A stretch of DNA of 64,000 bases from the NCBI GenBank assembly GCA_016342285.1, contig JAEINQ010000002.1, positions 1-64,000 on the forward strand, in the 5' to 3' direction. Below, piece by piece: positions 5,230 through 52,666 of the stretch. Source of the stretch: Desulfobacterales bacterium. Lineage in GTDB: Bacteria; Desulfobacterota; Desulfobacteria; Desulfobacterales; JAEINQ01. Under the pieces are notes generated by a model that was not told the origin of the DNA, ran no database searches, and saw only the letters and a list, made by a program, of their open reading frames with translations. The position numbers were made by a program, and so were the translations under genes. Numbering within the stretch: position 1 is the stretch's first letter; every line of letters starts with the position of its first letter.

Positions 5230-5841
5230 ATGAAAGTACTGATCGTTTACTACTCGACATATGGACATATTCACACCATGGCCGAAGCGGTGGCCGAAGG
5301 GGTCAATGCCGTGGCCGGTGCCGAAGCAATCCTCCGCCGCGTGCCCGAGACCTTGCCGGCAGACGTTCTGGAAAAAATGGGGGCGGTCGATGCCCAGAAG
5401 GCCCAGTCCCATGTGCCGGTCTGCACCGTGGAGGAGCTGGCCGAAGCCGATGCGGTGATTTTCGGCACCCCGACCCGGTTCGGCAACATGTGCGGCCAGA
5501 TGCGCCAGTTCCTCGACGCCACAGGCGGGCTCTGGGCCAGCGGGGCCCTGGTGGGAAAGGTGGGCAGCGTCTTTGCTTCCACCGCCACCCAGCACGGCGG
5601 CCAGGAGTCGACCATCCTTTCCTTCCACACCACCCTGCTTCACCACGGCTTTGTGGTGGTGGGTCTCCCCTATGCTTTCCAGGGCCAGATGCGCATCGAT
5701 GAGATCACGGGCGGCTCGCCTTACGGTGCCACCACCATTGCCGGCGGATCGGGGGAGCGCATGCCCAGCGAGAATGAACTGGAAGGCGCCCGTTTTCAGG
5801 GCAAGCATGTGGCGGCTATTGCGGCCAAACTGGCTGCATAG
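5230..5841 (+). CDS. wrbA: NAD(P)H:quinone oxidoreductase, WrbA type (flavodoxin-like)
   Basis: [25 protein letters not shown]-terminus and flavodoxin-like fold motifs; AAGGAG RBS; follows pirin by 12 nt (operon). Confidence 0.85.
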
Positions 5842-6282
5842 GTTCCCCTAAAGCCCCACGCCAGGGGAGTCAGGCTGCCGGACAGTGAGCTCCGGCGGCC
5901 TGCACTCCACCCGGGGAACGCCCGCCTTACAACCGCTGGATCAGGTAAAGATAAGTCGGCAGACGACTCAGTCGTTTACTTCGGCAAAACGTTTGGACCA
6001 GTTAGTGCCGAGCCCGCGAATGAATTGGATTTCTCCCCTCAGATTGAACTAGAATTCGTAGTCCGGCGTCGTGATCTCGGAATACCTGCCGGATCGGAGT
6101 GGAGTGCGGGTCCTCTTGAGATGACCGGAGCCGTCTCTTTCAATGGTGACGGCCATATTGATGATCCGTCACAAGAGCAAATGGGTTTCTCCGACTTTGC
6201 AGGCCTTTATGGAGACCGCCAGGAAAGTGATAAAAACGCCGGAAGTGGATTAATGAAAAGGTTTGACAAACAGAACGTTGTA

Positions 6283-37926: not shown

Positions 37927-38391
<465 letters not shown>

Positions 38392-38702
38392 TTATTGTAT
38401 AATTTGACTAATGTAGAAATTGGAATAGATCAGGCGAAGGCCTCTGGGGCTTCAAGGGAGAAGCAGTTGTGAATTACATAATTGTTATATTTGCTATGTG
38501 ATGTTTCATTTATGGCGTTTTTTGTGCTTCCGTAAAACGGTCCCGACCGTCCGGGCATTGCCGGCCGGTGCCGGGATCTTTTGACACAACCCGTGCAATC
38601 TTTTATTGTGCCCTCTTTGATGGCCGGTCCGTTTGGGTCGGGGTGAAGAAAAACGTTTATGTCCGTTTGATGAGGCCCGCAATTTGCACCGGGACTGTTG
38701 CC

Positions 38703-41006
38703 ATGCCAAGGATGAAACGAAAAAAAGGCGACCACTTCAACCTGCTCTGCGATATCGGGGAGTTGGCCGGTTTGCTGGCCGGAAGCGACAATATCGAGCA
38801 GTTCCTTCAGCAGACCGTGGTGATGGTGGCGCGCCATCTCGACGCCCCTGTCGGATCCATCTATCTCTATGAAGAGGCGACCCGGCACCTGGTGCTCCGG
38901 GCCACGGTGGGACTGAACCCGGCGGCCGTGGGAAAGGTCCGGTTGTCCATCGGCGAGGGGCTGGTGGGCAAGACCATGGAGCGCAAGCGTCACCTGCGGG
39001 AAGGGCGTGCCAGCGGCAACCCCCACTTCAAATTCTTCGAAGAGGCGGACGAGGCCCGCTTTGAATCGTTTCTCGCGGTCCCCCTGATTCGCGGCGACCA
39101 GAATATCGGCGTGCTGGTGGTCCAGCACGAACAGGAGGACTATTTCGACGAGGTGGATGCCATGGCCCTGCGTGCAACGGCTTCACAACTCGCCGGGTCC
39201 GTGGAAAACGCCCGGTTGATGTTCCATTTTCAGCGCATGGGCAGCACAACACCGGTCGCCGAGGCCACAGACCGCCTCGGTCTGATCAAGGGGGAATCCG
39301 GTGCGGCCGGTTTTGCCCTGGCCCCCATCGCGGTTTTCAAAAGCGGCCACGGTCCGCTGCTGGCATACCGGCCCGACACCGAATTCGCGTCGACCCTGGC
39401 CGGTTTCCGCAAGGCGGTGGACAATACCCACCAACAGCTCAAGACCCTTCAGGCCCGGCTGGCCCAGCGGCTTCCCGAGAGCGCCGCGTTGATTTTCGAA
39501 GCCCATTTCATGATCCTCAAGGACGCACGGTTCGTGGCCCGCATGGCGGAGAAAATCGAATCCGGCCTCTCTCCTCCCGAGGCCGTCAGGTCCGTGGCCC
39601 GGTATTACATGGACCTGTTTTCATCCAGTTCCAGCGCCTACCTGCGGGAGAAGACCCATGACATCGAAGACCTTGCCCGGCGCATCCTGCGGAACCTGAG
39701 ACAGATCGGGACCGACGATACGGACCTTTGCAGCGGCCGCATCGTCATCGCCAGAGAACTCTTCCCTTCTGACGTATTGAAGCTGGCCTCCGAGGACGTT
39801 CGCGGCATCATTCTGGTCAGCGGCGGGGTGACCTCCCATGTGGCCATTTTGTCGCGGTCCCTTCAGATCCCGCTGGTGATCGCCGACAGGCCGGACCTGC
39901 TCGATCTGCCCGACAACACGCCGGTGCTGGTGGACGCGGATATGGGCAATATCTACGTGAATCCAGACCGGGAGGTGAAAAAGCGGTTTCAGGCCCGGGA
40001 AACAGCCAAGAAGCGGGCCGCCGAAACAACCGGCCCGCCGCCGGACGAGACCCGCACCGCCGACGGCCTGCGGGTGCATCTGATGGCCAACATCAACCTG
40101 CTCGGCGAACTGGTCCTGGCCCGACGGTTGCGGGCCGACGGGGTCGGGCTCTACCGCACGGAATTCCCCTTTCTGGTTCGGTCCACCTTTCCGTCCGAGG
40201 AAGAACAGATGCCGATTTACCGGCGTTTGATCGAAGAGATGGCCGGCCAGGTGGTCACCATCCGGACCCTGGATATCGGAGGGGAGAAAAACCTGCCCTA
40301 TCTCGATTCAACCGTGGAGGCCAATCCGGAGTTGGGACTTCGTTCCATCCGGTTTTCCCTGAGATACGGGGATATCTTTGCCCAGCAGCTCCGGGCGATT
40401 TTAAGGGCGGGGGCCGGCGCGGCGCAGCTCCGGATCATGTTTCCCATGATCTCTTCTATCGATGAGTTGCGTCAGGCCCGGCAGGCGGTGGCCGAGGCGG
40501 CGGCCTCACTTGCTGTCGACGGGCTGGAACACAACCCGACGCCGAAGCTGGGCATGATGGTGGAACTGCCCGCCGTACTGGACATCATTGACGACTTTGC
40601 CGCCGAGGTGGATTTCTTCTCCATCGGCACCAATGATTTCATTCAATACATGCTGGCCGTGGATCGCTGCAACAAGACCGTGGCCGACTACTACCGGCCC
40701 TATCACCCGGCGGTGCTCAGGGGCATCGACCGGGTTGTCCGGGCCGCCCGTTGCGCGGGTAAAGAGGTGGCGGTCTGCGGCGAGATGGGGCATATGCCGG
40801 TTTTTATCACCTTTTTGATCGGCATCGGGCTGACCCGGTTTAGCGTCGACCCCCAGTTCATTCCCCAGGTGCGCCGGCACCTGGCTGCCCTGGACACGGC
40901 AATGGCCGCCGCTTTTGCCGCGGCGCTGCTAAAAGAAACGTCGCTGTCCGCAATGAAAGAGATTCTCAACACCCACCCGGAGGCCTGCCATGACCCGAAC
41001 CCCTGA
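38703..41006 (+). CDS. ptsP: Phosphoenolpyruvate-protein phosphotransferase of the nitrogen PTS (EI-Ntr, PtsP) with an N-terminal GAF domain
   Basis: GAF domain, then PEP-utilizing enzyme domains (conserved-His region GGVTSHVAILSRS, PEP-binding TIM barrel with the CGEM motif); start at ATG 38703. Confidence 0.85.
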   Translation: MPRMKRKKGDHFNLLCDIGELAGLLAGSDNIEQFLQQTVVMVARHLDAPVGSIYLYEEATRHLVLRATVGLNPAAVGKVRLSIGEGLVGKTMERKRHLREGRASGNPHFKFFEEADEARFESFLAVPLIRGDQNIGVLVVQHEQEDYFDEVDAMALRATASQLAGSVENARLMFHFQRMGSTTPVAEATDRLGLIKGESGAAGFALAPIAVFKSGHGPLLAYRPDTEFASTLAGFRKAVDNTHQQLKTLQARLAQRLPESAALIFEAHFMILKDARFVARMAEKIESGLSPPEAVRSVARYYMDLFSSSSSAYLREKTHDIEDLARRILRNLRQIGTDDTDLCSGRIVIARELFPSDVLKLASEDVRGIILVSGGVTSHVAILSRSLQIPLVIADRPDLLDLPDNTPVLVDADMGNIYVNPDREVKKRFQARETAKKRAAETTGPPPDETRTADGLRVHLMANINLLGELVLARRLRADGVGLYRTEFPFLVRSTFPSEEEQMPIYRRLIEEMAGQVVTIRTLDIGGEKNLPYLDSTVEANPELGLRSIRFSLRYGDIFAQQLRAILRAGAGAAQLRIMFPMISSIDELRQARQAVAEAAASLAVDGLEHNPTPKLGMMVELPAVLDIIDDFAAEVDFFSIGTNDFIQYMLAVDRCNKTVADYYRPYHPAVLRGIDRVVRAARCAGKEVAVCGEMGHMPVFITFLIGIGLTRFSVDPQFIPQVRRHLAALDTAMAAAFAAALLKETSLSAMKEILNTHPEACHDPNP

Positions 41007-43076: not shown

Positions 43077-45920
43077 ATGATGACGCCGTTGTCCCAAGCC
43101 TGCCGTAAACTGCCCCTGGACCGACTCGCAGCGCGTATCTGCGGTGATCTGGTGTGCGACCGGGTCGGACGGATCCTGGTTGCCACCGACGGTTCCATCT
43201 TCGAGCGGCTTCCTGTTGCCGTGGTCTATCCCCGATCGGTGACGGATGTGGTGGAGACGGTCCGGTTTGCCGCTACCCACCATCTGGGTGTCCATCCCCG
43301 GGGGGCCGGCAGCGGCCTGTGCGGATCTGCCATAGGCGATGGCCTGGTGATCGATTTCACCCGGTACATGAACCGGCTTTTGTCGCTGAACGCGGCCGAA
43401 GGATGGTTTGAATGCGAACCCGGTTATCGTCTGGGACAACTTGAGGTCGATGCGGCAGGCACGGCGCTTTTCTTTCCGCCGGATCCCTCCAGCGGGGAGT
43501 ATGCTTCTTTTGGCGGCATGGTTGCCACCAATGCCAGCGGTGCCCATTCGGTTAAATACGGCAATGTGGCCGATTACCTGCAGGACGCACAGGTGGTGAT
43601 GGCTGACGGATCCGTCGTTGACCTGGGCGCCCTGGGCCGCCTTTGCGAAAAGGATCTCGACGGGCGTTTTTCCGCTTTGCATGGGCTATACACGCGCAAC
43701 CGGGAGAAAATCGCCGGCGCCTACCCCCCGGTGCGATTCAACACCTGCGGATACAATCTGCGCGACATGGTTCGAGACGGACGGCTCGATCTTCGGGGGC
43801 TTTTTGCCGGGGCCGAGGGAACCCTGGGGGTGCTCACCCGGCTTCGGTTTCGCCTGCTGCCCCGACCGGCCCACGATAGCCTGGTGGTGGCGCTCATGGA
43901 CGATATCCGCCTATCGGCCCGGGCGGTCCAGCAGATTCTCCCCATGGGGCCGTCGGGCATCGAGATCATGGATAAATCACTGCTGGACCTGGCACGATCA
44001 GAGGACCCTGCTCTGGCGGGGAAGATTCCGGAAGGCGTAGACAACGTCCTTCTCATCGAATTCGATGGCCAGGACCGTGACGCCTGCACCCGCCAGGCCG
44101 ATGCCGCGGTGCGCCTGCTCCAAGGGCAGGGTTTGACCGACCGGGTCTACCCGGCTGTATCGCCGGAGGAAAAAGCGCGCTTCTGGGCTGTTCGAAAAGC
44201 GGCGGTGCCGATTCTCTACAAACTGCGGGGCAGGCGCAAGATTCTGGCGCTGATCGAGGATGCGGCGGTTCCCACGGACAGCCTTGTGACCTATTTTGAC
44301 GGACTTTACGAGATACTCCACCGCCACGGGGTTCGTTTCGTCATTTACGGGCACATCGCCAAGGGGCTTTTGCACACCCGGCCCCTGCTGGACCTGAGAG
44401 ACCCGGTCGATGTCGACCTGTTGCGGCTACTGGCCGACGACGTCTTTGACCTGGTTCGCGGACTGGGGGGGTCGATCTCCGGCGAACACGGCGACGGTCG
44501 GCTGCGAAGCCCCTATGTCCGTCGGCAGTACCCGGAGATTTACCCCCTCTTTGAGCAAGTCAAATCGATTCTCGACCCGTCCGGGATTTTCAACCCGGAG
44601 ATCATCACGGTCCACGATCCGGATCAGATGCGCCGGCACCTGCGTTTCGGCGCCGATTACCGAAGCCGGGACCTGGCGCCGCAAGAGCTGCGCTGGCCCG
44701 AAGGGTTTGTGGAAGAGGTGGAGAAGTGCCACGGATGCAGTAAATGCACCACCCTGACCACCGCCACGCGCATGTGCCCGGTGTACAAGTTTACCAGGGA
44801 GGAAGCCGCCACGCCCCGGGCCAAGGCCAATGTGCTTCGGGCACTGATCAGTGGTGTGCTGCCCGAAGAAGAACTTTTTCGAGCGGCCCTTCAGGGGGTG
44901 ATGAACCAGTGTGTCAACTGCGGCAGTTGCCACAGCGAGTGCCCGTCGGGGGTCAATATTCCGAAAATGGCCATGGAGGCCCGGGCCCGATATGTGAAGC
45001 GATTCGGTCCGTCCCTGGCGGCCCGGTTCATGGTGAGCGCGGAGCTGGCCGGTCGCTATACCCGCCATGTATCCAAGCTATTCAACCCGGTCATGGAGAC
45101 GGCGCCCATGCGAGCGATCGCCCAGCGTTTGGCCGGGTTTTCCGCCCAACGCGACCGGGTGGTCTTTGCCGCCCGGTCCCTGTTCGATCGACTGCCGGAA
45201 CGGATGGGCGCAGGCGATCTTAATGTGCTCTATTTTGCCGGTTGCTACGCTGGCTACATGCACCCGGAGATCGGCATGGCCGCGGTGCGGGTGCTGACCG
45301 CTGCCGGCGCCACGGTTTTTTTGCCCCGGCAGCACTGTTGCGGCCTTCCCATGATTTCCAAGGGGATGCGTGATCAGGCCCGAGAAAAAATCCTTTCGAA
45401 CCTGCGCCTCTGGGAGACCCTGGCCGAACAGGCCGATCGGATTGTGGTGACCTGCAGCTCCTGCGGCCTCTCTTTGATGCAGGAGTGGGGCTATCTGCTC
45501 GACCCGGACCGGGCCCACCGGATCCGGGAAAAGACCGTCCACATCAGTGCCCTGATTCTTGAGCGAATGGACCGGTTGCGGTTTAATGCCCAGCCCCTGA
45601 CCGTGGGCTACCACGCCCCGTGCCACCTCCGGGTCCAGCCGGATGCCGACAGCAGCGTCCGCATGATGGCCGCCCTTCCCGGCGTCGGTGTGGAAGATCT
45701 CAAAAGTCACTGCTGCGGCATGGCCGGAAGCTGGGGGATGACCAAAGAAAACTTCGATCTGAGCCAGGCCATCGGCGCCCCCATGATTCAACGCCTTGAC
45801 GGTTGCCAAGCAACCATAGGGGTTACCGATTGTCCCACCTGTCGCATGCAGATGGAACAGTTTTCCCGAAAACCGATTTTCCACCCGGTGGAGATCGTGG
45901 CCGAGCGACTGGCGAAATGA
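43077..45920 (+). CDS. FAD-linked oxidase (GlcD/D-lactate dehydrogenase-like) fused to 4Fe-4S and CCG (GlpC/HdrD-like) domains
   Basis: FAD-binding PCMH domain, then a C.GCSKC...CP / C.NCGSC...CP ferredoxin motif and two Cys-rich CCG repeats; 947 aa. Confidence 0.8.
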   Translation: MMTPLSQACRKLPLDRLAARICGDLVCDRVGRILVATDGSIFERLPVAVVYPRSVTDVVETVRFAATHHLGVHPRGAGSGLCGSAIGDGLVIDFTRYMNRLLSLNAAEGWFECEPGYRLGQLEVDAAGTALFFPPDPSSGEYASFGGMVATNASGAHSVKYGNVADYLQDAQVVMADGSVVDLGALGRLCEKDLDGRFSALHGLYTRNREKIAGAYPPVRFNTCGYNLRDMVRDGRLDLRGLFAGAEGTLGVLTRLRFRLLPRPAHDSLVVALMDDIRLSARAVQQILPMGPSGIEIMDKSLLDLARSEDPALAGKIPEGVDNVLLIEFDGQDRDACTRQADAAVRLLQGQGLTDRVYPAVSPEEKARFWAVRKAAVPILYKLRGRRKILALIEDAAVPTDSLVTYFDGLYEILHRHGVRFVIYGHIAKGLLHTRPLLDLRDPVDVDLLRLLADDVFDLVRGLGGSISGEHGDGRLRSPYVRRQYPEIYPLFEQVKSILDPSGIFNPEIITVHDPDQMRRHLRFGADYRSRDLAPQELRWPEGFVEEVEKCHGCSKCTTLTTATRMCPVYKFTREEAATPRAKANVLRALISGVLPEEELFRAALQGVMNQCVNCGSCHSECPSGVNIPKMAMEARARYVKRFGPSLAARFMVSAELAGRYTRHVSKLFNPVMETAPMRAIAQRLAGFSAQRDRVVFAARSLFDRLPERMGAGDLNVLYFAGCYAGYMHPEIGMAAVRVLTAAGATVFLPRQHCCGLPMISKGMRDQAREKILSNLRLWETLAEQADRIVVTCSSCGLSLMQEWGYLLDPDRAHRIREKTVHISALILERMDRLRFNAQPLTVGYHAPCHLRVQPDADSSVRMMAALPGVGVEDLKSHCCGMAGSWGMTKENFDLSQAIGAPMIQRLDGCQATIGVTDCPTCRMQMEQFSRKPIFHPVEIVAERLAK

Positions 45921-45978
45921 TGAGCCCGGGGCCATTTTCCCTGAATGCCCGTGAAAAACAAAATAGGAAAGTCTTGCC

Positions 45979-46611
45979 ATGACGCTTGAATTCTGGATGA
46001 TTTATGCTGCCACGGTCTTTATCGCTTCTATTGTTCCGGGGCCGAGCATGCTTCTGGCCCTGACCCATGGCATGAAATACGGTGCCGGCCGTACGGCGGC
46101 CAGCGCCGCGGGGAACGTGACCGCATCCCTGATTCAGGCGGGTATTTCCATGGCGGGGTTGGGGGCGATCCTGACCGCTTCGGAAAATCTCTTTCTGGCC
46201 GTCAAATGGGCCGGGGCCGCCTATCTGATCTTCTTGGGGCTCAGCCTCTTCCGCTCTCCCCGGATGGCCGTTTCCGTGGATACCGATTCCAACGGGGATG
46301 CCAGATCCGAATCCGCGTATCGAATGTTCGCCCAGGCCTTTCTGGTGGCCGCCGGCAATCCCAAGGCCATTGTTTTTTTCACCGCCCTGTTTCCCCAGTT
46401 TATCATTCCCGGCGGCGGCACCTGGCAGCAGGCCTTTCTCCTGATAGCCACCCTGGCCATTATCGCCTTTGGCTGCTTCATGATTTACGCCGTGGGCGGA
46501 GAGAAAATGATCGCACTGTTTTCCCGGGGATGGCTCGGCAGGCATTTGAACCGGATCGTCGGTACTGCTTTCATCGGCGCTGGCTTAGGCCTGTTTTACA
46601 GCCGGCGCTAA
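45979..46611 (+). CDS. LysE/RhtB family amino-acid exporter
   Basis: Six TM helices, N-terminal PGPSMLLALTHGM LysE signature. Confidence 0.8.
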   Translation: MTLEFWMIYAATVFIASIVPGPSMLLALTHGMKYGAGRTAASAAGNVTASLIQAGISMAGLGAILTASENLFLAVKWAGAAYLIFLGLSLFRSPRMAVSVDTDSNGDARSESAYRMFAQAFLVAAGNPKAIVFFTALFPQFIIPGGGTWQQAFLLIATLAIIAFGCFMIYAVGGEKMIALFSRGWLGRHLNRIVGTAFIGAGLGLFYSRR

Positions 46612-46692
46612 AACAGATCGCTGTTGACCGTGTAACGGTATCCATTGCTAAGCAATTTTAAACCACTTGATAGTTGACAGAATCTGAGGCCT

Positions 46693-46716
46693 CATACTAT
46701 ACATATGTTTAGTATG
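46693..46716. promoter_or_regulatory. Near-perfect 24-bp palindrome CATACTATACATATGTTTAGTATG overlapping the lexA-like start codon; candidate autoregulatory operator
   Basis: Reverse complement differs at 2 positions; located in an AT-rich upstream region. Confidence 0.4.
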
Positions 46717-47337
46717 ATTGATTTGACACCCAGGCAAGCTGAAGTTCTGGCCTTTCTTCAAGAATCGCTGCAAAAAGAACGCGTTGCACCCACGTACAGA
46801 GAAATTGCCGATCACTTTGGCTTTAAAAGTACCAAAGCGGCTTCAGATCATATCCGCGCATTGGAAAACAAAGGGCGAATCCGCAGACGCGGACGCATAT
46901 CCCGCGGTATTGAGGTGATTGCGTCTTCCACTGAATCCGAGTCGTTGAATGCTGTTTCCGTACCGATCATGGGAAATATCCCGGCAGGCCAGCCGGAACA
47001 AAAATCGGAATGCCAAATCGGTCACTTGGCCGTTGACCGGGCAATTCTCGAAGAGGCCGCTCGTCATCAACTGTTTGCCTTGCAGGTCATTGGTGACTCC
47101 ATGATCGACAGGGGGATCCATGACGGGGATTGGGTGATTGCCGATGCCGATGTGATTCCCAAGGAGAAGGACATTGTTGTCGCTTTGATTGACGGTGAAA
47201 ACACACTGAAAACCCTTGCCAAAAGGAACCGACGATTCTATCTAAAGGCTGAAAATCCCTCCCACCAGGATTGGATGCCCCTTGGCGAATTGATCATACA
47301 GGGCGTTGCCAGGACAATCATCAGGCGGATATCCTGA
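46705..47337 (+). CDS. lexA: LexA-like S24-peptidase transcriptional repressor
   Basis: wHTH LTPRQAEVLAFLQE...REIADHFGFKS...IRALENKG; Ala-Gly cleavage site VPIMGNIPAGQP; catalytic GDSM Ser and Lys (TLKTL). Codon usage and GC are visibly lower than neighbouring host genes. Confidence 0.8.
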   Translation: MFSMIDLTPRQAEVLAFLQESLQKERVAPTYREIADHFGFKSTKAASDHIRALENKGRIRRRGRISRGIEVIASSTESESLNAVSVPIMGNIPAGQPEQKSECQIGHLAVDRAILEEAARHQLFALQVIGDSMIDRGIHDGDWVIADADVIPKEKDIVVALIDGENTLKTLAKRNRRFYLKAENPSHQDWMPLGELIIQGVARTIIRRIS

Positions 47338-47341
47338 AGCC

Positions 47342-50300
47342 ATGACAACTGTAACAAAAATAGATAGTCGCCTTGTGCGGGAACACCAATCAACCCCGCC
47401 GGGAATGCTGTTTTACGATTCCGTCGAAGCGGTTCGCCGTGACATCAGTCTGTTGGGCTATGTTTCCGTCGTGGAGCGCGCCTGGCAGGAGATGGATTTA
47501 AATGGGGTACTTTTTCTCGATTCCCGCCCGGTTTTGTACCTGAAAGAATATGGTCAACCAGCTTCTTCCGCGGAGCGAATCAGGCTGCAAAAACTTTTCT
47601 GGAACCAGGGGGTTGCCAATGTCCTGGTCCTGGCCGATCCCACCACAGTTTCTCTTTATTCCGGGCTGACCAAACCGCAACCGGAGCAACTTGAAGGCCC
47701 GAAAGCTGAAAAGGCTCTGATCGGCCAACCGCTGGCCCTTGCCGAATACGTCCAACAGATCCAGGCTCTGTACCATGATTTGGCGACCGGCAACTACTAT
47801 GAAAAGTATGCGGAGAGATTTAATCCAGATGAGGCCGTGGATGCAACGCTATTGAGGCATCTGAAAGAGCTACGCGATGAATTGATCAAGGGCGAGTATG
47901 GGCTGGGAATCAAAGAAGCGCATGCCATTATCGGCCGGGTTTTGTTTTTATGCTACCTGCTTGACCGGGGCATCGTTACAATCGGACCGTTGTCAATGGG
48001 GAATACGGCGACCTCTTGTTTTGCGCAAATACTGGGTGGAAAGCCCCATAAAGAGGGCATATCCTACCTGTACGGACTCTTTAACGACCTGAAGGAGCGG
48101 TTCAACGGAAATATGTTCGATCTGGATCTTGATGCCGAGAAGGAGAGCATTCAAACGGTTCATATCGAAAAACTAATTCGGTTCCTTGGCGGCCATGATG
48201 TCAAAAGCGGGCAATTAAATATATGGCCCTATGACTTCAAGATGATTCCCGTTGAAACCATCAGTGCCATCTATGAAGACTTTTTGGCCGTGGAGGACCC
48301 TGAAGGCAAAAAAGGCCAGGGTGCTTTTTATACGCCAAGATTTCTTGCGGAAATGGTGGTGGATACGGCGGTCGGTGAAGACCCCGATCTCCTGGACGGC
48401 TCCTTTCTCGATCCAGCCTGCGGTTCGGGGATTTTCCTGGTCATCCTGTTCAATCGGATTGCGAACCGATGGGTTTTCAACCAGGTCAAAACCCCGGGCT
48501 ACTTGAAAAAAGCCGAGGCATTACAAAGTATCCTGAAGCAACAAATTCGAGGCGTGGATAAAAAGGAAACCGCCTGCAGGATCGCCTGCTTCAGCCTGTA
48601 CTTGGCCTATCTCGATTTTTTTGACCCACCGGATATAATCAAATACGTGGAACGGACCGGCAGCCCCCTGCCAAAGCTTCTTCATTACGGCGATACCCCG
48701 AATCGGCCCCAAGCCGACATGCCGGTAGTTTATAAAGCAGATTTTATAAACGGCAATAGTTTGGGTGAAGAAAAATTCGATTGTATCATCGGCAATCCTC
48801 CATGGGCGGAACGGGGCAGGAAGCAATTGGCGCTAAAATTTATGGAAAAAACCCCCGATTTTCTAAAGGAAAGCGGGGTCGGTTGCCTCCTTCTGCCCAC
48901 AAAAAACCTTCATAACCAGACAGATGCATTTCAGGCCAAATGGCTGCTCCGGGTGGAATTGGAAAAGGTTATTCAACTGGCGGACTATAGCTTTCTATTG
49001 TTTAAAAACGCATTATGCCCCGCTTTCATTGCGCGCTTTAAAAACACGCCGCCTCAACCAGCTAAGCACTTGATTGAGTTTGTCGCACCCAAATTTAACA
49101 GAGACGGACTTCGACAGGGTCTAATTATTGTCAACCCATCATCGAGAACCTGGATACCACTTTCAGATATTTTGGCCGCGACTGAATTAAAAACAGCTTC
49201 CGTTTTGTGGAAACGTTGGCTTTGGGGAACATCACGAGACCAAAAGCTGATAGACCTTCTTTGGCAATTGCCATCTTTAGGGGCTCATGTAGATGTTCTC
49301 AGTGAACTTCGAAAGCAGCGGAAAGAAAGAAAAAAACGATGGATTATTGGTCAAGGGATCAAACCATGGCTTAAATCGAAGAAAAAATCCGATCGCCTAC
49401 CGAAAAAAATAATATGGCCTCTTGATACGCCTTTTATTGCAGCGAGTCCATGGCATAGCAATCAAATACTGATGGAAAGTGATACAATTCCAATAGAAGA
49501 GAGGTTGAAAAAAAAGGAATATCGAACCGATATTTTTTACAGCCAGCCGCCTCAAGATCTTTTCAAGCCCCCCATGATTGTTGTCAGCCAGGGATTTGAA
49601 AAGGTCGCCTACTGTGATTTCAATGTCCTTTTTCAACATTCGCTGCAATCAATCGCCGGCCCCAAGAATGATTCGGATTTATTGGTGTTCCTGTCGGTTT
49701 TTCTGAGGTCCAGCCTCGCGAGATACTTCCTGTTCCATACCTCGGCAAATTGGGGAACCGAAAGAGACAAGGTCCTCCTCGACGAATTGTTGCGGGTTCC
49801 CTTCCCCTTGCCGGGCCACGAGTTTGTTTCTCCTGATGGCGGTCGAATTGTGAGGCATGTTTTTACGAAGTTTAAATCTCTTCGCAGGAAACTGGTAAAA
49901 ACCTTCAATAAACTAAAACAAGACTCGACAAGATTTGCTTTATTTCCCGGTGATGAGCCGGATATCGGTTTAAGGTGGAGGAAAGAACGTAAAATACTTG
50001 TTGATGCATTTCAAAATGATATGGAGCCTTTGATTTACAACTATTTTGGTTTGACGGAACAAGAAATTGCTCTTGTTGAAGATACGATCCGAGTCTTCGA
50101 GCCCAGTTCAACGCCTCATTCTTGGCGCAGTCCGAAATCTTCTCTTGTGACATTGGACCCTTTGGAAAAAGCGAAGGCGGAACCCTATGTTAATGATGGC
50201 TTGAATGCCTATGCCGATATGTTGACCGGGACGCTGAACGGCTGGGCACAAATGGAGGGCTCCATTTATCGCGTTCGTGCAGAAGGGGGAATCAGCAAAA

Positions 50301-50578
50301 AGATCGGCATTGCGATGATTTCCTTGACACTTGCCGAGAGGGCCGGAGTGTTTCGACAAAAAAACATTGAAGAAGGTCTTGCCCGTCAGCTCAACGATTT
50401 TCATCGTCTTGTCGCAAAGGATCACGGCAAGCAGCGTTACGAGAGAGACCTATTCCTATTTCAGGGGAAGAATATCCATGTCATTCGTCCAAATATTCTT
50501 TTCAACTGGACCCGTACAGCCGCACTCAACGACGCCGCGCGCATTTATGGCGAAATTGCCCAAGCTGGTGAGGATTGA
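47342..50578 (+). CDS. Large gamma-class N6-adenine DNA methyltransferase of the Eco57I/MmeI (type IIG/IIL-like) family with ~330-aa N-terminal and ~560-aa C-terminal extensions
   Basis: Motif X GAFYTP preceded by YDFKMIPVETISAIYEDFL, motif I DPACGSGIFL, motif IV GNPPW. ATG 47342 is 4 nt after the lexA-like stop. C-terminal half is AT-rich. Confidence 0.8.
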   Translation: MTTVTKIDSRLVREHQSTPPGMLFYDSVEAVRRDISLLGYVSVVERAWQEMDLNGVLFLDSRPVLYLKEYGQPASSAERIRLQKLFWNQGVANVLVLADPTTVSLYSGLTKPQPEQLEGPKAEKALIGQPLALAEYVQQIQALYHDLATGNYYEKYAERFNPDEAVDATLLRHLKELRDELIKGEYGLGIKEAHAIIGRVLFLCYLLDRGIVTIGPLSMGNTATSCFAQILGGKPHKEGISYLYGLFNDLKERFNGNMFDLDLDAEKESIQTVHIEKLIRFLGGHDVKSGQLNIWPYDFKMIPVETISAIYEDFLAVEDPEGKKGQGAFYTPRFLAEMVVDTAVGEDPDLLDGSFLDPACGSGIFLVILFNRIANRWVFNQVKTPGYLKKAEALQSILKQQIRGVDKKETACRIACFSLYLAYLDFFDPPDIIKYVERTGSPLPKLLHYGDTPNRPQADMPVVYKADFINGNSLGEEKFDCIIGNPPWAERGRKQLALKFMEKTPDFLKESGVGCLLLPTKNLHNQTDAFQAKWLLRVELEKVIQLADYSFLLFKNALCPAFIARFKNTPPQPAKHLIEFVAPKFNRDGLRQGLIIVNPSSRTWIPLSDILAATELKTASVLWKRWLWGTSRDQKLIDLLWQLPSLGAHVDVLSELRKQRKERKKRWIIGQGIKPWLKSKKKSDRLPKKIIWPLDTPFIAASPWHSNQILMESDTIPIEERLKKKEYRTDIFYSQPPQDLFKPPMIVVSQGFEKVAYCDFNVLFQHSLQSIAGPKNDSDLLVFLSVFLRSSLARYFLFHTSANWGTERDKVLLDELLRVPFPLPGHEFVSPDGGRIVRHVFTKFKSLRRKLVKTFNKLKQDSTRFALFPGDEPDIGLRWRKERKILVDAFQNDMEPLIYNYFGLTEQEIALVEDTIRVFEPSSTPHSWRSPKSSLVTLDPLEKAKAEPYVNDGLNAYADMLTGTLNGWAQMEGSIYRVRAEGGISKKIGIAMISLTLAERAGVFRQKNIEEGLARQLNDFHRLVAKDHGKQRYERDLFLFQGKNIHVIRPNILFNWTRTAALNDAARIYGEIAQAGED

Positions 50579-50580
50579 AT

Positions 50581-51054
50581 ATGGGCGGCGAAGTAAGGGC
50601 TTTCATTCCCCTTTTTCCCCAAAGGCATATCCCGATAATTCTGGCCGCCATTCTTCAGGCCGGTGAAACCCTTCAGAAAAAAATACCGAATGAACATGAA
50701 AATCGCTTGACCCGGCGGCTGTGCAGAATGTTGAATCAAATGATCATCTTTCGAGATGGCCCTTTGAGCATCCACCCGCAGCAGGAAATCCTCTCCCCAG
50801 ATCCGGAAAAGGACACCCCCGAAGGATATATCGATATATTGGTTTCTTGCGGACACGGATCCGAGGTCTATTTTGCCATTGAAGCAAAAAGGCTGCGTGT
50901 AAGATCCGCCAGTGGAAGGATGACCGCGGGCAACGACGATTATGTCAATGAAGGCATGATGCGTTTTATTACCGGACAATACGCACCCTTAATGAAATCT
51001 GGAGCCATGCTTGGGTATGTGTTCGACGGTGATACCGGAATGGCTCGTTCCTGA
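50581..51054 (+). CDS. Small PD-(D/E)xK nuclease-fold protein (Mrr-cat-like mini-nuclease)
   Basis: E...GYIDILV...YFAIEAKRL = E / D / ExK catalytic signature; ATG 3 nt after the MTase stop with GGTGAGGA RBS (track ORF starts at TTG 50575). Confidence 0.55.
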   Translation: MGGEVRAFIPLFPQRHIPIILAAILQAGETLQKKIPNEHENRLTRRLCRMLNQMIIFRDGPLSIHPQQEILSPDPEKDTPEGYIDILVSCGHGSEVYFAIEAKRLRVRSASGRMTAGNDDYVNEGMMRFITGQYAPLMKSGAMLGYVFDGDTGMARS

Positions 51055-51529
51055 GTCGGGCGATATATCCAACGCAAGTCTGATGAACTGAAACTCTTGC
51101 CGCCCAAACGGCTCGTCAGATCAAGAATTCTTTATAGAAAGCCTGCCGACGAAACCCATCATCAGCTACCAGCACGGAAATTCACCCTATACCACCTGCT
51201 TATCGCCGTTTGAGCCCAACACTTCTGAAAATACCGATGCAACCTGCATTTTTTTAGGCGCTCATCGCTGTCGACTTTTTATAGGGATTGTAAATGGATC
51301 GTTCCGGGGCCGAGGCTTGCCCCTATGAAGGGGCCGGCCGTCACTTCAGCGGAACAGAAATAGGACAATCCCTATGCCGCGATACAATTTGTTACACCTT
51401 GTTACCCTCCTGAAAAGCAATCTTTCCTGGACTGTTCTAATGTCTGACCATCACGGAAATCGTTTCGGGCTCAAACCGGGTCCTGATCGACGATCCGGGC
51501 GGTACAAGAAGACAGGGGAGGGACGGGCC

Positions 51530-51901
51530 ATGGTTCAACGAAAAAGAGGAAAATCGGGAAGGGCGCCCATCGCCCTGGTCACCGGGGCGGCTGCCGGCCT
51601 GGGGTTCGAACTGAGTAAGCTTTACGCAGAGGCCGGTTACGGACTGGTCCTGGTGGACAGTGATACCGGACGTCTCCAGAGCACCGCCGACCGGCTCAAA
51701 AACCGTTACGGCGTGGCCGTGACACCCATTGCCCAGGACCTCGGAGACACGGGGGCGCCGGATCGGATTTCCCGGGAACTGACAGGCAGCGGGCTGACAC
51801 CTGACGTGATTATTACCCGGGAAGGATTCCGGGTTTACGGCCCCTTCCCCAAAGCCGACTTCCAAAAGGAACTTCATCCGGTGTGCCGAGATTACCAGTA
51901 A
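51530..51901 (+). pseudogene. Truncated short-chain dehydrogenase/reductase (N-terminal ~120 aa only)
   Basis: ALVTGAAAGLGFEL Rossmann motif and NAG-region remnant DVIITREGF, then divergence and a premature stop. Confidence 0.45.
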
Positions 51902-51979
51902 GGCGGGGTGTTGCCTTTTTTCTGATACGAAATCAGAAGATTCAATTTAATGTGAAAAACATTACGAAAGGAGATTGTC

Positions 51980-52456
51980 ATGAAAAAAAAAGGAATGATT
52001 GGGATCATTATAAGTGTTACAGCAGTGGTGATTGCCCTGGTCGGGTGTGGGCACCAAAAGTTCTGGAGCCATGAGGATTCGCCTGAAGCCCGTGCCGCAT
52101 GGGTGGTTAAAAAGGTTTCCGATCGCCTGGACCTGAATCCGCGGCAGCAGGAAGAACTCAACCGGATTTCAAAGGAGGTCATGGCGCGCCGCGACGACAT
52201 TCGTACCTCCCGCGAGCAGTCCAGGCAGCAGGTGCTGGACATGGTCCGCAGCGATGCCATCAACCGGGCTGAACTGGAACGGCTCGTCAATGAAAAAAAG
52301 GCCCAGATCGAGGAACTAATCCCGTTTTTTATGGACAAGGCATTGGCGTTTCATGCCATGCTCACGCCCGAGCAGCGGGAGACACTTGCCGCTGAAATGG
52401 AAAAACACCACAGTCGCGGCCATGGGTGCTGGTCCCGGTGGTCCGCGAGCAAGTAA
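51980..52456 (+). CDS. Spy/CpxP/ZraP-like periplasmic LTXXQ-motif protein (lipoprotein)
   Basis: Lipobox ALVGCG; two LTXXQ-type motifs LNPRQQEEL and LTPEQRETL; His-rich C-terminus. Confidence 0.7.
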   Translation: MKKKGMIGIIISVTAVVIALVGCGHQKFWSHEDSPEARAAWVVKKVSDRLDLNPRQQEELNRISKEVMARRDDIRTSREQSRQQVLDMVRSDAINRAELERLVNEKKAQIEELIPFFMDKALAFHAMLTPEQRETLAAEMEKHHSRGHGCWSRWSASK

Positions 52457-52666
52457 GGCCGGTTAAGGGGTCGATTTCGTATGACCGCGATTTCACTTTT
52501 TACTAAGCCAATACTCACAGTTGTGGACCGGAAAAGGGTTTACCGCTGCCGCGAGAAAACAAACGGCCGTTTAAAGGGCAATGTCGAATTTACAATCCTC
52601 AATTTCCAATGCTCAAGTGTGGGGTCGCCTTGCTCGGCCAATTTAAGAAAGCTCTAAGTGGCAGAA

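Follow-up and report, generated by a model that had tools for sequence, protein, structure and literature searches.

We examined a 64-kb window (positions 1 to 64,000 of contig JAEINQ010000002.1, from the Desulfobacterales bacterium assembly GCA_016342285.1) and describe a cassette of three genes that encode a LexA-like repressor, a large N6-adenine methyltransferase and a small nuclease. The three open reading frames (ORFs) are co-directional, and the cassette spans 46695-51213 (Table 1). NCBI assigns proteins identical to those of the window to a Desulfobacterales metagenome-assembled genome (locus tags JEZ11_*). The stop codon of the lexA-like gene lies 4 nt from the methyltransferase ATG, as stated in the initial annotation of the locus, which was made from the letters alone; the next gap, from the methyltransferase stop to the nuclease ATG, is 2 nt and not the 3 nt given there.

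The cassette sits in an island with a GC content of 0.48, compared to 0.585 in the left flank and 0.566 in the right flank (cassette minus flank, -0.105). In the composition profile, GC across 46400-51400 drops from about 0.60 to 0.42-0.50, and the minimum (0.42-0.46) falls in the 3′ half of the methyltransferase gene. The description of a compact, low-GC and compositionally foreign three-gene unit is therefore borne out. From gene content and composition, we give roughly even credence to the island being a horizontally acquired copy of a self-contained three-gene cassette of the restriction-modification (R-M) type.

Table 1. Positions of the cassette genes, control elements, protein domains and flanking genes. 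Nucleotide positions refer to the 64-kb window; aa, amino acid residues of the large protein; SDR, short-chain dehydrogenase/reductase; HTH, helix-turn-helix.
Feature	Position	Strand or location	Remarks
lexA-like gene	46705..47337	+	210 aa; winged HTH and S24 autopeptidase repressor
Large methyltransferase gene	47342..50578	+	1078 aa counted from ATG
Small nuclease gene	50581..51213	+	210 codons in the family; TGA at 51052-51054, annotated product 157 aa (50581-51054)
LexA-type operator	46695..46714	.	TACTATACATATGTTTAGTA; 20-bp palindrome with the lexA ATG (46705) at its centre
Putative sigma70-type promoter	46667..46695	+	-35-like TTGATA 46667-46672, 17-nt spacer, -10-like CCTCAT 46690-46695
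N-terminal alpha/beta domain	aa 1-110	large protein	no conserved catalytic acidic residue
Helical spacer	aa about 120-300	large protein	
Gamma-class N6-adenine methyltransferase	aa about 300-600	large protein	
Putative target-recognition domain	aa about 600-830	large protein	hypervariable at 640-760
Long helices and C-terminal alpha/beta domain	aa 830-1078	large protein	
Low-GC island	46612..51373	.	end of LysE-family gene to start of SDR fragment; composition profile, Pfam LysE and adh_short
LysE-family gene	45979-46611	left neighbour	Pfam LysE
SDR fragment	51374-51901	right neighbour	Pfam adh_short

The large methyltransferase

The large protein matches Pfam N6_Mtase and Eco57I and has a borderline match to MmeI_Mtase (27.5 bits, cutoff 27). 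PADLOC REase_MTase_IIG models also match (8.4e-62 and 3e-48). The motif YDFKMIPVETISAIYEDFL at residues 297-315 is followed by motif X (GAFYTP, 327-332), motif I (DPACGSG, 357-363) and motif IV (NPPW, 485-488). Motifs X, I and IV are invariant among homologues, as are the YDF..IPVETIS..Y.DFL block and FWNQG. The motif order X-I-IV and the YDF..IPVE block noted initially are confirmed, and the single polypeptide has the gamma-class N6-adenine methyltransferase order, with the recognition domain after motif IV. We predict that the protein recognizes a target sequence and methylates adenine.

The AlphaFold2 (AF2) model of the large protein has a predicted local distance difference test (pLDDT) of 81.9 and a predicted template modelling (pTM) score of 0.81. 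In a Foldseek search with this model the best match was BrxX/PglX of the bacteriophage exclusion (BREX) systems (9ewz, E 1.3e-16, TMq 0.44, 998 columns; also 8q56 and 8c45). BpuSI, MmeI and DrdV were matched too, over 930-1090 columns, and the alignments as a whole cover about 930-1130 columns.

We found no competent PD-(D/E)xK domain in the large protein, as conserved acidic residues are absent from the expected positions. Residues 41-107 form an alpha-beta-beta-alpha-beta-beta unit in which all of 50 sequences have Tyr at position 66; in homologues with identities as low as 30-35% this residue is Tyr, Gly or Ala, and an Asp or Glu never occurs there. Position 54 varies among Asp, Asn, Ser and His (Asn in the window protein), and Asp60 is not kept in distant members. 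An alignment of D54...Y66-x-K68...Q83xxxW87 to the nuclease motif was made by eye only. The N-terminal profile matched no nuclease in the PDB or Pfam; its sole matches to solved structures, RAP30/TFIIF and HSH49, look spurious, and homology to the small nuclease was rejected (hhalign probability 0.2%). The invariant Tyr66, the variable position 54 and the lack of a nuclease-family match agree with the initial remark that the N-terminus has no clean D-ExK motif. Conservation and profile searches likewise uphold that this is not a stand-alone type IIG enzyme with an intact N-terminal nuclease. The large protein thus appears to be without a working nuclease of its own, and its N-terminal domain may be a decayed one.

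GC at third codon positions (GC3) of the large gene is 0.55-0.56 and drops to 0.45 in the C-terminal half. The C-terminal half had been called much more AT-rich; its GC is indeed lower, but the size of the GC3 drop does not justify "much".

The small nuclease and its nonsense codon

The small ORF has the catalytic pattern E40...D85...E101-x-K103, and E...D...ExK is invariant in its family. The protein is a restriction-endonuclease fold, with a PD-(D/E)xK alpha/beta core and invariant catalytic residues. The initial annotation presented it as a mini-nuclease of 157 aa; the fold and motif stand, but the window gene is a truncated copy from a conserved 210-aa family. The frame runs 52 codons past the in-frame TGA. 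A search with the read-through sequence returned 515 proteins, and the best 120 of the 515 are nearly all 210-212 aa long and 55-77% identical at 100% query coverage. These homologues carry Gly at codon 158, where the window has TGA, which indicates a GGA to TGA change. Nor does the idea of a minimal nuclease without a DNA-binding domain hold, because the intact family matches stand-alone BamHI-class enzymes in both size and fold.

The nonsense codon removes the last 53 residues, including the invariant L170, H194 and H205. With this loss the window cassette is probably restriction-dead and most likely reduced to an orphan methyltransferase under LexA control. Almost all other copies are intact: among 45 related loci the nuclease gene is damaged in only three more (L041, with one stop, L039 and L058). 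We rejected selenocysteine insertion or programmed read-through at the TGA: the homologues have Gly and not Cys, the RNA downstream folds no better than shuffled sequence (z -0.68) and contains no structure like a selenocysteine insertion sequence (SECIS), and no Rfam family was found in 45500-52500.

No match was found for the window nuclease or its intact homologues in Pfam, PHROGs, PADLOC, NCBIfam or PDB sequences. One distant family member has a sub-threshold match to PDDEXK_9. The only solved-structure match in a profile search, to a tetratricopeptide repeat (TPR) protein, looks spurious.

The LexA-like repressor, its operator and putative promoter

The product of the first gene carries every sequence feature of an autocleaving LexA. 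It matches Pfam LexA_DNA_bind (PF01726; 7.7e-20, 70.9 bits) and Peptidase_S24 (PF00717; 4.7e-22, 78.3 bits), and scores 153.5 bits against the NCBIfam LexA equivalog TIGR00498 (cutoff 110.95). The protein has the cleavage site Ala94-Gly95 and the catalytic Ser132 and Lys169; across 36 cassette LexA copies, AG, G-x-S-M and K do not vary. The initial assignment as a LexA-type autocleaving repressor, with winged HTH, AG site and Ser/Lys dyad, is in line with all of this. A copy in the metagenome-assembled genome (MAG) of a betaproteobacterium is 56% identical to the window protein and only 32.5% identical to a manually entered sequence of E. coli LexA. By sequence, the cassette proteins are a distinct LexA subfamily that shares a CTAT-N8-ATAG box with other LexAs. 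No ORF for a small XRE-type controller (C) protein with a C-box exists in 46600-51400, where the lexA-like gene is the only regulator, in line with the non-standard R-M layout without a C-protein that was first described. In other clades a small HTH_11 protein or no regulator takes the place of the lexA-like gene.

The palindrome reported over the lexA start codon is real. Its arms (46692-46704 and 46705-46717; inverted repeat I24) enclose the core operator, for which the family consensus is TACTATACAAATGTATAGTA (CTAT-N8-ATAG). The window operator has one mismatch to TACTAT-N8-ATAGTA. About 37 related loci, from different phyla, have the operator at the identical position, spanning the start codon of lexA. 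Two matches to TACTAT-N8-ATAGTA with at most 2 mismatches occur in the 64-kb window, compared to 0.12 expected. The second (38380-38399, TAATATACTGTATTATTGTA, 2 mismatches) is in AT-rich intergenic DNA upstream of a GAF-PtsP-like gene (38568-41006) and was judged a chance match; there is no other good operator box in the window.

We infer the operon promoter from the aligned upstream regions of 37 cassettes; a simple consensus scan of the window did not call it. TTGACA or TTTACA occurs in the same register in 24 of the 37, and one base off in about 10 more, and a -10-like xAxxxT is followed by the lexA ATG 10 nt later. The last T of the -10-like CCTCAT is the first base of the operator, and a second TTGACA is found at 46674-46679. 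The short distance from the -10 element to the ATG implies that the cassette mRNA is leaderless or near-leaderless, and the repressor may occlude both promoter and start codon. With a palindromic operator at its own promoter, the lexA-like gene is predicted to be autoregulated. There is no second operator between the cassette genes, so all three would be controlled jointly.

A few loci depart from this arrangement. Two have tandem operators 64-68 bp apart upstream of the lexA-like gene (L031, 5271-5290 and 5339-5358; L033, 514-533 and 578-597), which recalls the double SOS box at E. coli lexA. At L025 lexA is deleted and an operator remnant (5894-5913) remains 107 nt upstream of the methyltransferase gene. 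The LexA motif of Verrucomicrobia is TGTTC-N4-GAACA (PMC4951493). A verrucomicrobial locus nevertheless carries the cassette-type box. The cassette operator of L042 (a Verrucomicrobiota MAG, 5356-5375) reads TACTATACATTTGAACAGTG, and the right half includes GAACA; it may be a hybrid that is adapting to the host repressor, GAACA being the Verrucomicrobia LexA half-site.

Conservation and distribution of the cassette

We collected 58 loci by looking up exact proteins and scanning 185,579 species genomes, and use the taxon labels of the MAG records. Wherever downstream DNA is available (45 loci), the methyltransferase gene is followed by the nuclease gene. Upstream DNA is available at 51 loci, and at 40 of them a lexA-like gene comes before the methyltransferase gene. 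The cassette genes overlap or are 2-4 nt apart, while the neighbouring genes differ at every locus. Hosts include Desulfobacterota, Nitrospirota, Verrucomicrobiota, Planctomycetota, Nitrospinaceae, Thiotrichales, Sulfurimicrobium, Beta- and Gammaproteobacteria, and others.

A profile search of 1.84 billion representatives recovered 1049 clusters of the nuclease family. Every distant nuclease examined in its genomic context is preceded by, or fused to, a 990-1055-aa N6_Mtase/MmeI/Eco57I protein. The gene upstream of these distant pairs encodes an 84-98-aa HTH_11 protein, or there is none. The conserved core of the cassette, found across more than 1000 sequence clusters, is methyltransferase plus nuclease, because the nuclease is always linked and the regulator varies; judged from these gene neighbourhoods, LexA is the commonest of several interchangeable regulators. 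The trio proposed initially is therefore conserved, but LexA is not a fixed part of it, as about one fifth of the close loci are without lexA and the distant clades use HTH_11.

Two pairs are on conjugative or mobilizable alphaproteobacterial plasmids (L067, Sagittula plasmid p5, NZ_CP126150.1; L068, Bradyrhizobium pBel61, NZ_AP013104.1), where they are annotated only as "N-6 DNA methylase" and "hypothetical protein". In pBel61 a second Eco57I-domain protein (1376 aa) is encoded immediately downstream. These two loci and L050, L052 and L054, on plasmids or integrated elements, are near genes for ArdC-like proteins (zincin-like metallopeptidase), ParB, DUF3768 and excisionase, surroundings that recall the leading or anti-restriction region of a conjugative element. 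In the metagenomic loci L063 and L064 a gene for a TIR_2 protein (1628-2596) immediately precedes a distant pair, and an N6_N4_Mtase gene lies on the downstream side; the neighbourhood looks like a defence island. A phage origin was rejected, as no relatives were found in IMG/VR or GenBank phages. Decay is seen at L058 (Desulfotignum), where stops and frameshifts run through all three genes, and at L009, where lexA is frameshifted.

The operator outside the cassette

A metagenome scan for the exact 20-mer TACTATACAAATGTATAGTA found it on at least 120 contigs (L069-L188). Among the matches listed, to which the counts and contexts in this section refer, about 29 contigs carry lexA at the box, and these LexAs are of two kinds. 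Those that begin with MYS have the start codon within the box and are 40-63% identical to the window protein; the large methyltransferase gene is next in 12 of the 14 cases with enough room. This is a reciprocal linkage test, as the sample was picked by the operator alone and independently of the methyltransferase. Stand-alone LexAs form the other kind. They are 30-42% identical, and the box is 20-240 nt upstream; the closest named relatives of one of them are LexA proteins of uncultured Actinobacteria and Ca. Humimicrobiaceae.

The same box also stands immediately before genes for DNA polymerase III alpha or error-prone (DnaE2-like) polymerases, TIGR03916 radical-SAM repair proteins (515.8 bits, cutoff 343.5) and a RecA-fold ImuA-like protein. 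It also occurs upstream of HxlR/MarR-like regulators and DUF72-like genes. We therefore rule out that the operator is private to the cassette. The occurrence of the identical 20-mer before lexA and repair genes elsewhere makes it a genuine type of SOS box. CTAT-N8-ATAG is not among the LexA-binding motifs listed in one review (PMC4951493).

Co-variation of the nuclease with the large protein

We compared 36 cassettes all-against-all by the identity of each region. The methyltransferase core is 51-95% identical between cassettes. For the recognition segment (aa 640-760) the identities spread from 28 to 97% and are bimodal, a pattern that would be expected if recognition modules were swapped. 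Nuclease identity correlates with that of the N-terminus of the large protein (r 0.71, partial r 0.34 when the core is controlled for) and of its C-terminus (r 0.71, partial r 0.39), with 0 of 2000 permutations in each case. For the recognition segment the values are r 0.27 and partial r 0.10. When the core is matched at about 69%, nuclease identity is 0.54 for pairs with similar recognition segments and 0.52 for pairs with dissimilar ones. The pair L007/L012 has a core identity of 87% and a nuclease identity of 74%, with 39% in the recognition segment.

Independent restriction and modification enzymes must change specificity together, which is held to be very unlikely, and a shared recognition domain frees such change (PMC4833311). 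Swaps of the recognition segment without a change in the nuclease favour a nuclease that shares the recognition domain of the large subunit, and the comparison is suggestive of such borrowing. The initial annotation had raised a split type IIG system with the nuclease acting in trans; the co-variation test favours this over an independent type IIP enzyme.

Borders of the island

No tRNA, no Rfam family (45500-52500) and no convincing flanking repeat was found at the borders of the island. A direct repeat ATCGCTGTYGAC (46617 and 51264) was considered as an insertion scar and is at chance level. At 29 other loci, repeats did not exceed shuffled controls, with the exception of L019 (JAZDPP010000037.1), so that of the 30 loci it alone exceeds chance. 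There the whole cassette is enclosed by a perfect 56-bp direct repeat, with one copy about 136 nt before lexA and the other 143 nt past the nuclease gene, and the repeat may be the footprint of cassette insertion or a target duplication.

The truncated SDR gene had been taken as a sign of insertion. This fragment covers only positions 2-74 of the 195 in the adh_short profile, after about 65 non-SDR codons, and it is cut at the 3′ end, the end far from the island, where an LTXXQ/Spy-like gene (51980-52456) follows. The position of the truncation indicates that insertion of the island did not cause it, and the fragment is an unrelated pseudogene remnant.

Comparison with known systems

The large protein resembles the type IIL/IIG enzymes MmeI, BpuSI and DrdV in its collinear domain order, from alpha/beta N-terminus to C-terminal helices. 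In MmeI the nuclease occupies residues 1-155, the spacer 156-300, the methyltransferase 301-620 and the target-recognition domain (TRD) 621-825, followed by C-terminal helices (PMC4833311). One recognition domain presumably serves both modification and restriction in these enzymes, as it would in the cassette. The MmeI nuclease motif VD70-X9-E80MK82 (PMC2582602) is not present in the large protein, where Tyr66 is invariant and there is no conserved acid, and the Pfam MmeI N-terminal, helical, TRD and C-terminal domains were not detected in it. Other differences from type IIL/IIG are the always-attached 210-aa nuclease gene, an extra C-terminal region of about 250 aa and the LexA-type regulator.

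PglX/BrxX of BREX, the best whole-chain structural match, has no nuclease activity of its own; its spacer helices are long, and a further C-terminal domain follows where MmeI ends. The C-terminal extension of the large protein is PglX-like, and the authors of the PglX study suggest that the conserved C-terminal domain is a partner-protein binding surface (PMC11341690). However, NCBIfam BREX methyltransferase models score only 19-37 bits against cutoffs of 400-900 (best 37.2 against 400), and the cassette neighbourhoods contain no BrxA/B/C, PglZ or BrxL genes, which leaves the cassette outside BREX. The partner of the large protein is a PD-(D/E)xK nuclease, which BREX lacks, and the PglX N-terminus is a helical bundle (PMC11341690), whereas that of the large protein is an alpha/beta domain.

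The small protein is 7-12% identical in sequence to the type IIP enzymes BamHI, BglII, BstYI and OkrAI. It differs from them in that it is always coupled to a IIG-like methyltransferase, with whose recognition domain it does not co-vary.

In lexA2-imuA-imuB-dnaE2 mutagenesis cassettes, a LexA-family repressor is the first gene of the mobile operon that it represses. A review of such cassettes is available (PMC3901139). The cargo here is a methyltransferase and a nuclease instead of translesion synthesis genes, and the start codon lies within the operator, with a near-leaderless mRNA. The WYL regulators BrxR and CapW, on which there are two papers (PMC9122589, PMC9122601), and CapH-CapP of the cyclic-oligonucleotide-based anti-phage signalling systems (CBASS) are DNA-damage-responsive regulators of defence systems. 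As with BrxR/CapW, CapH-CapP and the C-proteins of R-M systems, a dedicated autoregulated repressor heads the operon, and the modules are exchangeable (LexA-like, HTH_11 or none). Unlike the WYL, XRE/C-protein and HTH-plus-metallopeptidase regulators, that of the cassette is a bona fide LexA, equipped with the S24 domain for self-cleavage. Our literature searches found no description of a LexA-headed R-M or type IIG operon, nor of this nuclease family.

Proposed mechanism and alternatives

We propose that the cassette is a mobile two-subunit R-M module, like type IIG/IIL with a nuclease that acts in trans, and that it is repressed by its own LexA; the window copy would probably be restriction-dead. 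Our confidence in this proposal stands at the halfway mark. The large subunit would recognize the target and methylate adenine, and would itself no longer cut DNA. The small nuclease, without sequence specificity of its own, would cut unmodified DNA in complex with the large subunit, whose N- and C-terminal regions are candidate docking surfaces. The cassette LexA would hold the operon at a low, autoregulated level until DNA damage leads to RecA-stimulated self-cleavage, whereupon methyltransferase and nuclease would be made in a burst. Entry into a new host, where repressor is absent, could trigger the same burst. More tentatively, this may be an unnamed and widespread class in which a PglX-like methyltransferase-specificity protein, having lost its own nuclease, directs a dedicated BamHI-fold nuclease in trans and the module, in the commonest form, is wired to the SOS response through its own RecA-cleavable LexA.

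Several observations weigh against this proposal. Identity over whole proteins measures co-variation only coarsely and could miss parallel changes in a few recognition residues. The top four structural hits for the nuclease are all autonomous homodimeric type IIP enzymes of equal size, so the small nuclease could recognize DNA by itself. LexA is missing at 11 of the 51 close loci. Ordinary SOS regulons elsewhere use the same operator, and the cassette lexA may double as, or cross-talk with, the host SOS regulator. The sole natural fusion found between large protein and nuclease (P0373, 1312 aa; L062, JAAEQZ010002811.1, 1106-5044), which has no regulator, has lost motif X and has GLPW for NPPW and E-C-R for E-x-K. 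We down-weight it as evidence for a complex because of these degenerate motifs; the gene may be in decay, or its product inactivated or put to another use.

One alternative is an orthodox type II pair, in which an autonomous BamHI-class homodimer with its own palindromic site would be served by the large protein as cognate, if unusually big, methyltransferase and LexA would replace the C-protein. We consider this unlikely. The recognition segment is swapped between close cassettes (28-97%) without a matching change in the nuclease, which separate enzymes sharing a specificity are not expected to tolerate (PMC4833311); co-variation of the nuclease is instead with the two terminal regions of the large protein, and the methyltransferase has the PglX/MmeI architecture of asymmetric sites. 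The genomic settings of some copies recall a module that serves mobile-element establishment, anti-restriction or addiction more than defence: methyltransferase (and nuclease) would surge when a new host is entered and then be repressed, with the nuclease used for post-segregational killing or against competitors. Distant members are on conjugative or mobilizable plasmids beside ArdC-like, ParB and DUF3768 genes, Planctomycetota loci are beside ArdC-like and excisionase genes, and some cassettes adjoin HipA or Phd toxin-antitoxin genes; a repressor-first autoregulated operon also gives zygotic induction by design. Most close relatives, however, are chromosomal, have housekeeping genes around them and lack integrase or conjugation genes in the vicinity, and no phage-borne copies occur in IMG/VR or GenBank phages. 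Addiction is moreover a general R-M property, so that this explanation, which we regard as improbable, overlaps with the two-subunit R-M module.

It is highly improbable that the lexA-like gene is the host SOS master regulator and that the downstream genes are ordinary, co-transcribed members of the SOS regulon, for DNA methylation or processing induced by damage. The protein does pass the NCBI LexA equivalog cutoff, and an identical box precedes stand-alone lexA, DnaE2-like and TIGR03916 genes in other uncultured bacteria. Against this, the island in the window is 10 GC points under its flanks, and the methyltransferase and nuclease pair also occurs without lexA or with HTH_11. Among the matches listed, the MYS-type lexA is almost always followed by the methyltransferase gene, whereas the stand-alone LexAs are 30-42% identical and have the box upstream. 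The betaproteobacterial MAG copy is closer to the window protein (56%) than to E. coli LexA (32.5%, manually entered sequence), and the verrucomicrobial cassette has the cassette-type box in a phylum with the motif TGTTC-N4-GAACA (PMC4951493).

Significance

Metagenomic contigs with the cassette number in the thousands, and it is present in at least six phyla. Automated annotation names the large gene "N-6 DNA methylase" or "type IIG R-M" and the small gene "hypothetical protein", which makes the system invisible as a unit. The nonsense allele in the window is an example of an R-M system decaying to an orphan regulated methyltransferase.

If the nuclease acts in trans, the single-chain type IIL enzyme would here be split into a specificity/modification subunit and a cleavage subunit, giving a compact nuclease steered by a swappable recognition domain. 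This would bear on the evolution of the nuclease-less PglX in BREX and would provide a structural link between type IIL and BREX. If the embedded LexA works as proposed, this would be the first R-M family so controlled, beside C-proteins, WYL regulators and CapH/CapP, and it makes testable the idea that an SOS signal raises restriction capacity. Restriction and modification would then be induced together by DNA damage or by arrival in a naive host.

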